Shown: positions 1 to 14,604, numbered from the stretch's first letter. The stretch is 64,000 nt of DNA from Vicinamibacteria bacterium (GCA_025923995.1 JAICEW010000001.1:4513-68512), one strand, 5' to 3'. Notes: generated by a model from the letters alone, not told the origin. Translations and numbers: made by a program.

Positions 1-457
1 GACGCCCCTCGTTGTAGGCCGTGATCGCGGTGACGTGGGTCTCGCTGGCGACGGCCGCCTCGGCCAGCAGCTCGTAGTCGCCCGGCTCGGACGAGGGATT
101 GTCCGTCGACACCTTGAGGCGGTAGTCGCCTTCCTTCTGCGTGATCCAGACGAGCATCTCGCTGCCGCCGACCTGGACCCAGTCCTTCACCTCGATGAGC
201 GCGGTGCCGGCGGGATCGAGCAGCTCGAGCGTGAGGTCGATCCCGATCTGTGCGCCGGCCACCTTCAGGGCCTGCCCCGCCGCCAGCTCCAGCCGGTACT
301 CGTGGACCTCGTTCGCGGCGAGCCGGTGGCGGACCGGCACGGACGGAGCGAGCACGCCCTGGTCGACGGTGGAGCGCGGCGGCGGGCTCGGCGCGACGCT
401 CGGGCCCTGGGGCGCCAGGAGCCCGACCAGCGGGACGCACAGACCCAGTGCCCGCAT
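1..457 (-). CDS. 5' part (N-terminal 152 aa) of a secreted protein with a PPC-like beta-sandwich domain; the gene continues past the window start
   Basis: Reverse-complement of 1-457 is an uninterrupted reading frame from ATG (457-455): MRALGLCVPLVGLLAPQGPSVAPSPPPRS... (signal-peptide-like). It is followed by HEYRLELAAGQALKV...LLDPAGTALIEV...GDYRLKV...PGDYELL, which is alignable to the N-terminal domain of the CHAT protein at 8910-12026. GC3-rich codon usage. Not in the ORF track because it is truncated by the window edge. Confidence 0.5.
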   Translation of the reverse strand, partial: MRALGLCVPLVGLLAPQGPSVAPSPPPRSTVDQGVLAPSVPVRHRLAANEVHEYRLELAAGQALKVAGAQIGIDLTLELLDPAGTALIEVKDWVQVGGSEMLVWITQKEGDYRLKVSTDNPSSEPGDYELLAEAAVASETHVTAITAYNEGR

Positions 458-508
458 GACCGGCAAGGATGGAACACCCAATCCCCCGCGGGCGCAAGGG
501 CGCATGCG

Positions 509-12026: not shown

Positions 12027-12114
12027 CCCCGACCGACCGATCGGTTTGACTGGCTCGCCGGAAGAGCGTAGCTTCGAGCGTACGGCCAACCCTCAGCGCG
12101 ATCCCATCCGTCTC

Positions 12115-14604
12115 ATGGCCCAGCTCGAACCCGGCGCGACCCTCTCCCACTACCGGATCCTCGGCCCCCTGGGACAAGGCGGTCAGGCGACCGCCTACAA
12201 GGCGGAGGACCTGCGCCTGCGACGTCCCGTCGTGATCAAGGTCCTGCGTCCCGAGCTCGCGCAGACGGACGTGGCCCGGCGCCGCTTCGACCAGGAGGCC
12301 CTGCTGTGCGCCGCGCTCGAGCACCCCAACATCTCCGCCATCTACGAGGTGGGGGAGCAGGACGGGCTGCTCTACATCGTGATGCAATTCCTGGAAGGGC
12401 GGACGGTGCGCGAGCTGCTGAACGGCCGCCCGCTCGACGTGCGCAGCGCGCTCTCGATCGCGGTGCAGGTGGCGGACGCGCTCGCGGTCGCGCACGACCA
12501 CGGCATCGTCCACCGCGACATCAAGCCCGGCAACGTGATCGTGAGCAGCAACGGCCAGGCGCGGGTGGTGGACTTCGGGCTGGCCAAGATGCTGGGGCCG
12601 GACGGCGGCCCGCGCCCGGTGCATCCGGGCGAGGAGCCCGCCACCGACATGGGCGTGCCCTACGGGTCGCTCGGCTACGGCTCACCCGAGCAGGCCTCGG
12701 GCGCGGCCGTCGACCATCGCAGCGACATCTTCAGCCTGGGCGTGCTGCTCTACGAGATGCTGACCGGCCTGCGGCCGTTCCGCGGGCGGCACCTGGTCCA
12801 GGTGCTGAACGCGGTCATCAACGAGCCGGCGCGCCCGCTGCGCGAGATCAACCCGCGCCTGCCGCCGCGGCTGGAGGCGATCGTGGACCGCGCGCTCGCC
12901 AAGGACCCGCGCGATCGTTACCAGACGATCGCCGCCCTGCGCGACGAGCTCAAGGCCGTGCAGCGCCACCTGGGCGGGAGCCTGGAGGTCCCCGCCGCGC
13001 CCGCGATCGTCTCGCCGCGCCGCGCGCGCAACCCCTGGTTCACCGGCGGCCCGCTCGGCCGCGTGTTCTCGCGCATCCGCCCCATGACCTCGGGCGGCAG
13101 CACGGAGCCGCGCACCGACTCGGCCACGCCCACGCGCCCGGTCGCGCCGCTCCAGCGCCCCGCGTCGTGGGGGAGCGAGACCCGGCGCACGGTCGCGGTG
13201 ATGCCCTTCAAGAACCTGGCCGGCGACCCGGCCGTCGAGTTCTACGGCTTCTCGCTCGCGGACGGCGTGATCACCGAGCTCGCGCACCTGGAGTCGCTGG
13301 TGGTGCGGCCCTCCTCGTACATCGCGCCCTACGTCGGCCTGGACGTCGACCCGCGGCAGGTGGGCGAGGACCTGGCGGTGCAGGCCGTGCTGGTAGGCGG
13401 GTTCCTGAAGGCGCCCGACCGCTTCCGCCTGACGGCGCAGCTCATCGCGCCGGAGACGGGCGCCATCCTCTGGAGCGAGAAGATCGACACGCCCAAGGAC
13501 GACCTCATCAGCCTGCAGGACATCATCGCGGAGCGGGTGGTGGAGGGGCTCAAGGTGCGGCTCTCGGCGGAGGAGCAGGCCCAGATCGAGCGGCCCGCCA
13601 CCCGCGACCCGCGCGCGCACGAGTTCTACCTGCGCGGGCGCGACGTCCTGTTCCGCTACACGCTGCGCACGCTGGACGAGGCGGACCTGGAAGAGGCCAT
13701 CCGCATGTTCAACGAGGCGGTGGGCCTGGACCCCGAGTACGCCCGCGCGCACACCGCGCTGGGCCGCTGCTACATCCAGCACGCGCAGGGCTACGGCGGG
13801 CCGGAGTACTTCGTGCTGGCGGAGCGGGCCTTGAAGCGCGCGCTGGAGCTCGAGCCCGCGATGGTGGACGCGCGGCTGCAGATGGTCTACGTCGACCTCC
13901 ACCACGGCGACAAGGAGCGGGCGCACGAGCTGATCGACGCGCTGTCGCAGGAGGCCGGCAACGACCCGGCCGTGCTGTTCGTGGCGGGCATGCTCTACCG
14001 CCTGGACGGCCTGTACGAGCAGGCGCTCGCCCAGTACGACCGCCTGCTGGAGCTGAACCCGCGCGACATCGTGCTGGTGAGCTACAACCGCGGGCGCATC
14101 TACACGCACCAGCGCGACTACGACCGCGCGATCGCGGAGCTGGACCGCGCGCGGGCGGCGGAGCCCGACCACCCGCTGCTCAAGACCTTCCTGGCCGTCG
14201 CCCACTTCAACCGCGGGGACCTGGACACCGCCCAGCCGCTGCTGGAGGAGGTGCTGCGCCAGAACCCGCACCTGGACGGCGTGCAGCCCCTGCTGGGCTG
14301 GTGCCTCTCGGCCCGCGGCGAACACGAGCGCGCGCGCGCCCTCATCACCGACCGCGTGCGCGAGACCGCGACCGCCGACCACGACATCGCGTTCTGGCTG
14401 GCCTCGTTCTACGGGATGGAAGGCCTGACCGAAGAGGCGATCGAGTGGGTGCGCAAGGCCATCCAGCTGGGCAACGAGAATTACCCCTTGTTCGCGGAGA
14501 GCCGCAAGCTCGATAATCTGCGCGCCGATCCCCGTTTCCAGGCGCTCCTGGAGGACCTCCGGGCGCGCTGGGAAGCGCGCAAGGCGAGCCTCCCCCCCTC
14601 CTGA
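12115..14604 (+). CDS. Hanks-type Ser/Thr protein kinase with TolB-N-like middle domain and C-terminal TPR repeats
   Basis: Kinase motifs GPLGQGGQATAYKA, VIK, HRDIKPGN, DFGLAK, SPE. Middle domain RRTVAVMPFKNLAGDPAVEFYGFSLADGVITEL...LVGGF...LTAQLI. The C-terminus is TPR-rich. Start taken at ATG 12115 (MAQLEPGATLSHYRILG); the ORF track uses an unlikely TTG at 12046. 20-90 nt after the CHAT gene, so probably co-transcribed. Confidence 0.85.
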   Translation: MAQLEPGATLSHYRILGPLGQGGQATAYKAEDLRLRRPVVIKVLRPELAQTDVARRRFDQEALLCAALEHPNISAIYEVGEQDGLLYIVMQFLEGRTVRELLNGRPLDVRSALSIAVQVADALAVAHDHGIVHRDIKPGNVIVSSNGQARVVDFGLAKMLGPDGGPRPVHPGEEPATDMGVPYGSLGYGSPEQASGAAVDHRSDIFSLGVLLYEMLTGLRPFRGRHLVQVLNAVINEPARPLREINPRLPPRLEAIVDRALAKDPRDRYQTIAALRDELKAVQRHLGGSLEVPAAPAIVSPRRARNPWFTGGPLGRVFSRIRPMTSGGSTEPRTDSATPTRPVAPLQRPASWGSETRRTVAVMPFKNLAGDPAVEFYGFSLADGVITELAHLESLVVRPSSYIAPYVGLDVDPRQVGEDLAVQAVLVGGFLKAPDRFRLTAQLIAPETGAILWSEKIDTPKDDLISLQDIIAERVVEGLKVRLSAEEQAQIERPATRDPRAHEFYLRGRDVLFRYTLRTLDEADLEEAIRMFNEAVGLDPEYARAHTALGRCYIQHAQGYGGPEYFVLAERALKRALELEPAMVDARLQMVYVDLHHGDKERAHELIDALSQEAGNDPAVLFVAGMLYRLDGLYEQALAQYDRLLELNPRDIVLVSYNRGRIYTHQRDYDRAIAELDRARAAEPDHPLLKTFLAVAHFNRGDLDTAQPLLEEVLRQNPHLDGVQPLLGWCLSARGEHERARALITDRVRETATADHDIAFWLASFYGMEGLTEEAIEWVRKAIQLGNENYPLFAESRKLDNLRADPRFQALLEDLRARWEARKASLPPS

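Follow-up and report, generated by a model that had tools for sequence, protein, structure and literature searches.

A candidate mosaic island of exported proteins, with a protease module and a tail-fibre-derived module, in a Vicinamibacteria chromosome

The first 14,604 nucleotides of a 64,000-nucleotide stretch of DNA from a Vicinamibacteria bacterium (GCA_025923995.1 JAICEW010000001.1:4513-68512; the whole stretch is called the window) carry seven consecutive genes, g6 to g0, divergent from a gene for a CHAT-domain protease and a following Ser/Thr kinase gene. On balance, the region is best explained as a mosaic, fast-turning-over island of exported proteins lying by a kinase-MgtE-GGDEF/EAL backbone in an Acidobacteriota-type chromosome, with two functional modules and not one machine. 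This explanation draws on domain content, predicted fold and gene-pair conservation. A recurring exported-protease module and a widespread fibre module are both real, and the seven genes, CHAT and kinase together are not one conserved system. By content, the exported proteins fall into three sets that can be told apart: the metzincin and its TIMP-like partner beside the caspase-like protease, the rare Cys-rich protein, and the tail-fibre-like fibres. The pieces, a metzincin with its putative inhibitor, an adhesin resembling a tail fibre and a protease of the TPR-CHAT type, are all of kinds already known.

In the proposed protease module, g6, with its predicted NTR/TIMP fold, would be made in fixed proportion with g5, a matrixin-like metzincin devoid of a propeptide, by means of an ATGA overlap. 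After leader cleavage the free N-terminus of g6 (TT[L/M]VR) would block the g5 zinc site and hold g5 latent. The exported TPR-CHAT cysteine protease, divergent from the same 355-nucleotide region, would act on the same pathway and might remove the inhibitor or process a shared substrate, and the disulfide-rich g4 may be a further secreted component (substrate, effector or binder). In the proposed fibre module, fibB and fibA would be Sec-exported descendants of phage-tail-fibre building blocks that act with g1, whose GGFW module would partner the fibre N-terminal domain and whose CLIPPER domains would form an adhesin-type stalk.

Gene content and layout

Genes were called from third-position GC (GC3) and frame, a measure chosen because the window, at 73% GC, is full of spurious open reading frames (ORFs). 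The minus strand from 8554 down to 2 holds seven genes in a row, and the locus reads as follows:

2-505, minus: g0, partial, the N-terminal 168 residues, cut at the window edge (GC3 call)
509-2191, minus: g1, GTG start, 560 residues
2209-4131, minus: g2 (fibA), 640 residues
4128-6233, minus: g3 (fibB), 701 residues
6355-7008, minus: g4, 217 residues
7008-7961, minus: g5, 317 residues
7958-8554, minus: g6, 198 residues
8555-8909, no strand: intergenic gap of 355 nucleotides, flanked by the divergent g6 and CHAT genes
8910-12026, plus: CHAT gene, 1038 residues
12115-14604, plus: kinase gene, probable ATG start at 12115, alternative TTG start at 12046

These calls agree with an earlier note, made from the sequence alone, which had described seven consecutive minus-strand genes with signal-peptide-like N-termini, no secretion machine or housekeeping product among the locus genes, a divergent gap of 355 nucleotides, and three stop-start overlaps. 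The overlaps are ATGA at 7958-7961 (g6/g5), TGATG at 7006-7010 (g5/g4) and ATGA at 4128-4131 (g3/g2). The note's CHAT, DUF11 and metzincin assignments likewise all lie above the Pfam thresholds. The N-termini of g0-g6 and of the CHAT protein combine a positive N-region, a hydrophobic core (Kyte-Doolittle hydropathy 2.1-2.7) and an AxA-like site; these products look exported and the kinase product does not. PHROG and NCBIfam searches yielded no useful names for g0-g6. The divergent region 8555-8909 presumably holds a shared control region. It contains no sigma-70-type consensus promoter, which says little for this phylum, and its divergent layout is also seen in L174, a metagenome locus discussed below.

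The metzincin g5 and its partner g6

The zinc site HELGHALGIHH at residue 166, a downstream Met-turn and the Peptidase_M10 family model (33.3 bits against a Pfam cut-off of 24, with only the C-terminal half of the model covered) place g5 among the M10 metzincins. M191 and Y195 are invariant in five relatives, and some relatives, but not others, have a C-terminal Cys-containing beta domain. A propeptide is missing from the g5 family; the catalytic domain begins about 20 residues after the signal peptide. No PRCGxPD-type cysteine-switch propeptide was found in g5, and Cys46 (VPCNDPGG) is kept in four of five relatives; a cysteine switch was dropped because there is no separate prodomain.

The partner, g6, has about 50 homologues of about 200 residues, none with a Pfam domain. 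An AlphaFold model built from an alignment of about 50 members (predicted local distance difference test score, pLDDT, 88; predicted template-modelling score, pTM, 0.80) has the predicted OB-type beta-barrel and flanking helices of the NTR fold. Foldseek against the PDB placed agrin NtA, PCOLCE NTR, TIMP-1 and TIMP-2 on top, and NTR/TIMP proteins ranked first in two independent fold searches. Directly after the signal peptide the family keeps A-x-A and then T-T-[LM]-[VR]-R. The only Cys of g6, C20, lies in the signal peptide; it is not conserved, so g6 is not regarded as a lipoprotein.

In every context retrieved for a g6 homologue, an M10 metzincin gene comes directly after it, with overlapping stop and start codons. 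The pair occurs in L090/L091 and in L092/L093, whose neighbourhoods have no other gene in common, and in L089 beside the same kinase backbone. This obligatory pairing and the sequence that follows the AxA site are indirect pointers to inhibition. We propose that g6 is the cognate inhibitor or latency partner of g5, and by analogy it could block the metzincin through its free N-terminus: TIMPs block the active site of matrix metalloproteinases (MMPs) with their N-termini and AprI does so, by convergence, on serralysins. In tblastn searches g6 had no match among plasmids and phages, and g5 had only a weak match among phages, of its C-terminal region to a haloarchaeal virus.

The g6-g5 protease/inhibitor pairing is a testable lead. 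If g6 inhibits g5, bacteria of a Gram-negative soil phylum would have an MMP/TIMP-like pair of their own, with about 50 relatives, and this would bear on the origin of metazoan MMP-TIMP regulatory logic and of the NTR fold.

The CHAT protease and g0

The plus-strand gene at 8910 would encode an exported PPC-like/TPR/CHAT caspase-like protease. Pfam assigns CHAT (PF12770) to residues 723-1036 at E 4e-68 (230.5 bits, cut-off 24) and TPR_12 at E 4e-51, and both dyad motifs are intact: HFATHG at 895-900 with catalytic H897, and LSACQT at 943-948 with catalytic C946. A signal peptide, which the earlier note had thought possible, was recovered as a leader; its relatives in L088 and L007 (two copies) likewise retain an intact dyad and N-termini that resemble signal peptides.

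At the opposite end of the locus, g0 has a signal-peptide-like leader followed by a PPC-like beta-sandwich domain. The earlier note had placed PPC-like domains at both ends. By name this was not sustained, since PPC scores 22.4 bits in g0, below the Pfam cut-off of 25.9, and is not detected by Pfam in the CHAT protein; the kinship of the two ends was, since the N-terminal domain of g0 is 29% identical to CHAT residues 29-151 (E 5e-7), and the two are hence paralogous. There are also weak matches of g0 to the N-termini of CHAT or TPR proteins in L007 and L019. We infer that g0 is probably the start of a second PPC-TPR-CHAT gene, and apart from the CHAT domain that it would begin there is no other within the 64-kb window.

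A scan of metagenomes with the g4 family found L174, where a gene for an M10 and CARDB protein follows a g6-like NTR gene, both divergent from a gene for a signal/lipobox, TPR and CHAT protein, which is followed by genes for a sigma-70 region 2 protein and a g4-like protein. Its NTR, M10 and CHAT proteins share only 26%, 27% and 32% identity with their window counterparts, and the divergent NTR-M10 and CHAT layout is common to both despite this distance. L174 is the one further recurrence of the CHAT, metzincin and Cys-rich-protein combination. The layout of the window, in turn, is that of L004 (kinase, divergent from a g4-like gene and then a fibre gene) with an inserted CHAT-g6-g5 block. Together, the L174 layout, the L004-plus-block layout, the conserved leaders and dyad, and the sole CHAT domain of the window suggest, provisionally, that the NTR-M10 pair is functionally linked to an exported TPR-CHAT protease and that g4 is one more component. 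If this is true, caspase-like proteases reach into extracellular proteolysis in bacteria.

CHAT genes accompany both the protease and the fibre modules in this lineage. A more ambitious version of the scheme would make of this a mobile Acidobacteriota extracellular two-protease module, in which TPR-CHAT controls a TIMP-fold-restrained metzincin, has g4 as substrate or effector and, at this locus, processes the tail-fibre-derived surface fibres; this version is distinctly unlikely.

The nearest described relatives of the CHAT protein are HetF and Csx29 of the type III-E CRISPR 'Craspase', which are cytoplasmic. Like them, it has a TPR array followed by CHAT with an intact His/Cys dyad. Unlike them, it starts with a signal peptide that is conserved and a PPC-like domain, its neighbours are exported proteins, and no CRISPR or defence genes lie near its gene.

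Tail-fibre-like proteins fibA and fibB

fibA and fibB appear to be Sec-exported, tail-fibre-derived fibres with a dedicated partner, and would be located at the cell surface. fibB consists, in order, of an Ig-like N-terminal domain (27-116), a Cys-pair connector, a GxGLxGG motif, Gly-rich repeats of about 19 residues and a C-terminal domain (about 545-695) named 'IDHPLDPEN' after its sequence. Its homologues number at least 889, and no Pfam domain occurs in any of them. fibA has the N-terminal region of about 200 residues in common with fibB, then seven repeats of about 52 residues, each with a CxxxxC pair (spacing 52, 52, 52, 55, 51 and 55 residues; 18 Cys in total), which probably fold in a beta-propeller-like manner. 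It has no Pfam match above threshold, neither fibre has a PDB sequence match, and the fibA counterpart in L006 is 79% identical. A 717-residue protein in L089 (5623-7776), divergent from g6-M10, joins fibA-type Cys-pair repeats, Calx-beta and a DUF11-like segment.

The tail-fibre likeness seen by the earlier note stands on the C-terminal domain. This domain of about 150 residues lies at the C-terminus of PSSM2_295, an annotated tail fibre of the Prochlorococcus phage P-SSM2 (34% identity, E 4e-9), and in 517 IMG/VR stretches. Its viral carriers, of 478-2483 residues, have it at the extreme C-terminus and match PHROG tail-fibre families; it belongs with the phage tail-fibre C-terminal domains of the phrog_17490 / phrog_28536 type. 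The note had also proposed naming the fibre domains by hidden Markov model (HMM) and modelling their folds. No Pfam model covers them, and the naming went as far as the phage link of the C-terminal domain and an Ig-like N-terminal domain in the AlphaFold2 (AF2) model; modelling gave confident N- and C-terminal domains of fibB (pLDDT about 90) and failed for its Gly-rich repeats. Foldseek matches of the fibB model in the PDB are weak ones to tailspikes, a pyocin fibre and Ig domains. A literature search for the motif IDHPLDP found nothing. Two stretches labelled as giant-virus metagenome-assembled genomes (MAGs), L095 and L100 (IMG/VR GVMAG-M-3300017963-10), carry the fibre C-terminal domain with 49-59% identity to fibB over about 145 residues.

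This kinship raises the alternative of a prophage or tailocin remnant, whose fibres would be leftover tail fibres with no cellular role. The shared C-terminal domain, the weak PHROG tail matches and the weak fold matches to tailspikes and a pyocin fibre speak for it, but it was dropped as highly improbable, because no further phage genes occur in 64 kb. A hydrophobic leader, needless for a phage fibre, stands at the start of 35 of 35 aligned family members, and the GC3 of the genes (0.95-1.0) is that of host genes. A scan that covered one representative genome per species gave at least 600 matches to the family, which lie in chromosomal surroundings and come from Pseudomonadota, Chloroflexota, Planctomycetota, Acidobacteriota, Bacteroidota, Armatimonadota and other phyla.

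The resemblance to PSSM2_295 thus lies in the C-terminal domain of fibB, at the extreme C-terminus after a repetitive fibre-like region. Unlike phage tail fibres, fibA and fibB have Sec signal peptides and a different N-terminal domain, and the chromosomes in which fibre genes of the family lie show no further phage genes; the partner of the fibre there is a protein with a GGFW module.

g1 and the GGFW module

g1 consists of a signal peptide, a GGFW module of about 60 residues (about 21-72), two DUF11/CLIPPER domains and a beta-rich C-terminal region of about 220 residues. The two DUF11 domains (PF01345) are assigned by Pfam at E 1e-31 (109.8 bits over both), and NCBIfam gives TIGR01451 at 59.6 bits. 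The GGFW module forms the first 60 or so residues of mature g1 and has the pattern YxLxWxTxDGGG...GGxYxLxGTxGQPDAG...GGxYxLxGGFW.

The module is a conserved partner of the fibre gene. Among distant fibre neighbourhoods (80 loci from 80 species of many phyla), the GGFW HMM matches 17 loci, in 14 of which the ORF directly abuts the fibre gene; where the fibre has the same N-terminal domain, the module is present in 14 of 25 loci. Loci with an abutting GGFW gene span Lysobacterales, Phycisphaerae, Armatimonadota, Chloroflexia, Rhodothermales and Acidobacteriota, and orthologues of g1 follow fibB in L006, L007, L088 and the contig that carries P0010. A physical contact between fibre and GGFW module may be supposed. 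No Pfam family occurs in more than 3 of 108 ORFs neighbouring fibre genes.

CHAT, M10 and kinase are not conserved fibre partners across phyla. M10, g4 and g6 lie beside the fibre gene in none of the 80 distant loci. A CHAT domain is near it in three, plus a few truncated TPR genes, and kinases are near it in 16, which looks like background for these phyla. In L060 (9914-15459), from an Armatimonadota MAG, one strand carries in direct succession the genes for a fibre, a 136-residue GGFW protein and a CHAT protein that lacks a signal peptide.

Fibrillar adhesins have stalks built of DUF11/CLIPPER domains, with a Lys-Asp-Asn isopeptide triad (PMC12617251). Like those adhesins, g1 has a signal peptide and two such domains. 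By eye, the isopeptide candidates in the first domain are K86 (LTKTDG), D119 and an Asn near 189-196, and the second domain has Ala where Lys is expected (LAIADAP). Unlike CLIPPER adhesins, g1 is short, with two domains of which the second, by eye, is without the isopeptide Lys, neither an adhesive tip nor a sorting signal is recognised in it, and its N-terminal GGFW module has not been described before. Since the fibres and the GGFW partner occur so widely (the species-representative matches counted above, and more than 500 viral contigs) and have no Pfam model, a name and a functional hypothesis would improve many genome annotations.

The Cys-rich protein g4

g4 is an exported-looking protein of 217 residues with a beta-rich domain of about 110 residues followed by a C-terminal domain of about 77. 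The Cys/Trp-rich character reported earlier is real, although the reported count of 12 Cys in 70 residues is not: the last 77 residues hold 10 Cys and 6 Trp. All ten Cys are fully or almost fully conserved in 13 members, and the domain would hold five disulfides. The family is rare: a search of 5.8 billion proteins gave 4 homologues, an exhaustive HMMER search of 1.84 billion representatives gave 16, and the metagenome scan with a 6-member alignment found only two loci. g4 adjoins a fibre gene in L002 and L004 and lies downstream of CHAT in L174; the contig of another homologue, P0179, is only 1 kb and its context uninformative. Of the suggested inhibitor- or toxin-like knottin, the inhibitor role did not survive; g4 as a protease inhibitor was dropped, because g6, with its predicted NTR/TIMP fold, is the likely inhibitor and the partner always paired with M10.

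Between the window and L001-L003, g5, g6 and fibB are 99-100% identical and g4 only 89%, with differences scattered along the gene. g4 thus appears to mark a hot spot of local divergence or recombination that is limited to this Cys-rich protein. A diversity-generating retroelement or other targeted hypermutation was dropped as the source of this divergence; the differences are dispersed and show no base specificity, and there was no sign of a reverse transcriptase. In other proteins, g4 residues of about 90-143 match the giant proteins P0184 (5241 residues, 13 stretches) and P0192 (4306 residues), and residues 49-74 match P0189 (2032 residues) in 17 stretches. These repeated matches make the N-terminal beta-rich domain resemble an adhesin-type repeat unit.

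The kinase backbone and the mosaic of relatives

The kinase is of the Hanks Ser/Thr type (Pkinase, E 5e-42, 144.6 bits) with C-terminal TPRs, both by Pfam; a TolB-N-like domain, once proposed for it, is reported by neither Pfam nor NCBIfam. The ATG at 12115 is its probable start, giving 829 residues like its homologues and a gap of 88 nucleotides to the CHAT gene. The sequence has no signal peptide and no hydrophobic or membrane segment, so the kinase is unlikely to be a direct partner of the exported proteins.

In the window the kinase is followed by MgtE and a GGDEF-EAL gene; in L006, L088, the P0010 contig and L089 an MgtE or GGDEF-EAL gene lies on the same side of its orthologue. The kinase is 88-94% identical in L004, L005, L006, L088 and L089 whatever genes adjoin it, whereas island genes in relatives are 56-79% identical or absent. 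The relatives are arranged as follows:

L001-L003: g6-g5-g4-fibB in the order of the window; near-identical organisms
L004/L005: kinase, divergent g4-like gene, then fibre; CHAT, g6 and g5 absent
L006: kinase, divergent from fibA, CHAT fragment, fibB, DUF11 gene and further CHAT fragments
L088: kinase-CHAT, divergent from two fibB-like fibres and DUF11 gene
P0010 contig: kinase, fibA, CHAT on the opposite strand, fibB, DUF11 gene
L007: two divergent CHAT genes, fibB, DUF11 gene
L089: kinase, protein that combines Calx-beta with fibA-type repeats, divergent from g6-g5; CHAT and fibB absent

The whole gene set is found in no other contig examined. Because the kinase-sharing contigs carry differing island contents, the kinase is taken as part of a conserved backbone with MgtE and GGDEF-EAL; it is probably a neighbour of the modules and not a member. 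The "CHAT-kinase pair" of the earlier note is accordingly not conserved, and its two members differ, the CHAT protein having a conserved signal peptide and the kinase neither leader nor membrane segment.

On the P0010 contig (JGI 3300078620), a gene with a PT-TG (polymorphic toxin) domain and four genes of about 305-318 residues with no assigned function (14762-18967) sit just past the fibre, DUF11, 201-residue and 274-residue genes, which hints at a conflict-related neighbourhood. In the window, an FHA-domain protein is encoded at 41840-43216 on the minus strand, about 27 kb from the kinase; FHA domains are typical readers of Ser/Thr phosphorylation.

The variation among relatives could also mean pure juxtaposition, in which a recombination-prone spot by the kinase gathers unrelated secreted-protein genes and CHAT, the metzincin pair, g4 and the fibres are unlinked. 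Order, orientation and content vary in every relative, no contig repeats the full set, and modules are found alone: g6-M10 in L090 and L092, and fibre with GGFW but no proteases in many phyla. Such a reading is less likely than not, and CHAT is what speaks against it. Every examined relative contig with a fibB orthologue (L006, L007, L088 and the P0010 contig) keeps CHAT despite rearrangements, the window has no other CHAT domain, and L174 repeats the divergent NTR-M10 and CHAT layout at 26-32% identity.

At the other extreme, the locus could be the single regulated system that the earlier note had in mind, with a kinase that senses a signal and acts through CHAT and the metzincin on fibre assembly or remodelling, for predation, adhesion or contact-dependent conflict. 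All parts are adjacent, three junctions are translationally coupled, the kinase lies beside the island in all relatives, and the PT-TG toxin-domain gene is a few genes downstream in the P0010 contig. What survives of that idea is the CHAT, metzincin and Cys-rich combination of L174; the kinase-sharing relatives hold different subsets in different orders. As a whole it is improbable: the kinase is without signal peptide or membrane segment while CHAT and the others look exported, its neighbours in L004, L006 and L089 are very different, M10, g4 and g6 are missing from 80 of 80 distant fibre loci, and the metzincin pair is missing beside the fibre relatives in L006, L007 and L088.

A further comparison was with LapG/LapD systems, in which a periplasmic LapG protease and a membrane LapD receptor for cyclic di-GMP (c-di-GMP) lie by a giant RTX adhesin. 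A Lap-like, c-di-GMP-controlled adhesin release was dropped, because the locus has no LapG (DUF920) or LapD domain; the GGDEF-EAL neighbour is a soluble GAF-PAS-GGDEF-EAL protein of the conserved backbone.

Discussion

The mosaic, two-module explanation has several points to answer. The signal peptides were judged by an in-house heuristic. For g6, the TIMP-like call rests on a predicted structure: no TIMP or NTR sequence model matches it (Pfam, NCBIfam, E <= 0.01), and its mature form has no Cys, so that the TIMP-defining Cys1 and disulfides are missing. In TIMP-1 the conserved disulfides are Cys1-Cys70 and Cys3-Cys99. Because Cys1, disulfides and sequence models all fail, g6 is proposed to work like a TIMP and is not counted as one. 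The CHAT link to g6-g5 is called provisional because it comes from two loci, the window and L174, and because g6-g5 also occurs without CHAT in L089 and L092; since both loci have 73% GC, they possibly come from related organisms. g4 belongs to the M10 arm of the divergent layout in the window and to its CHAT arm in L174, and the CHAT protein that adjoins a fibre in L060 has no signal peptide. In the fibB model the middle, made of Gly-rich repeats, is poor, and Foldseek against the PDB gave no solved structure at E < 1e-3.

The departures of g6-g5 from the vertebrate module follow from the same features. Unlike the MMP-TIMP/NTR proteins (agrin NtA, PCOLCE, complement C345C), g6 has no Cys1, disulfides or sequence-model match, and unlike a vertebrate MMP, g5 has neither propeptide nor cysteine switch.

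The closest bacterial counterpart is the Mtz-Tim pair of Listeria monocytogenes, a secreted metzincin followed by a TIMP-like lipoprotein, with a CI/Cro-like switch of phage origin (PMC8235301). Mtz cleaves Tim, and inhibition was not shown there (PMC8235301). As in Mtz-Tim, g5 and g6 are an adjacent and probably co-transcribed pair of a secreted metzincin and a small exported protein that is TIMP-like in predicted fold and not in sequence, and the pair moves between genomic contexts. The differences are considerable. The TIMP-like gene comes first and overlaps by ATGA, reversing the order; g6 is not a lipoprotein, as Cys20 and a lipobox are not conserved; there is no CI/Cro switch, XRE gene or phage context; tblastn with g5 and g6 against a phage collection found no related metzincin or TIMP-like gene; and the host is a Gram-negative-type Acidobacteriota.

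Serralysin-inhibitor pairs offer a second parallel. In AprA-AprI and PrtA-Inh a bacterial metzincin gene lies beside that of a small periplasmic inhibitor whose N-terminus enters the active site (PMC8235301). By analogy, the metzincin g5 is encoded beside the small g6, for which inhibition is proposed. AprI is an eight-stranded beta-barrel and g6 has a predicted NTR fold; serralysins are M10B enzymes with type I secretion and RTX repeats, and g5 has a Sec signal and no RTX repeats.

Other features of the window

One further feature of the island is a GC-rich hairpin in the 121-nucleotide gap between g4 and fibB:

6313-6347, minus: GC-rich hairpin with a 13-bp stem, seen in the fold

In L001-L003 its stem is kept and its loop differs. 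Overall, the region is no stabler than shuffled sequence (z -1.45), and a strong terminator after g4 was dropped for this reason. The hairpin may tentatively be taken as a transcript boundary or stabiliser between the protease and fibre modules.

The remainder of the window is ordinary chromosome, with MgtE, GAF-PAS-GGDEF-EAL, LigD and ligase, RpoD, DnaG, MutS2 and ccm genes. Two paralogous proteins of about 685 residues, 57% identical, are encoded on the minus strand at 18338-20389 and 21553-23607 and match TIGR03436 acidobact_VWFA; between their genes, at 20533-21537, lies that of a 335-residue protein without a family match. Of the features of the window, these two matches give the best indication that the chromosome is from Acidobacteriota. 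At 27329-31007 an Exo_endo_phos nuclease, an ATP-dependent DNA ligase and a LigD primase-polymerase adjoin, which resembles a repair cluster of the non-homologous end joining (NHEJ) type. Finally, a GC dip to 66% with strong AT skew (32-34 kb) falls on rpoD within 31989-35447, where dnaG adjoins; the codon second-position GC of this rpoD is only 0.35.

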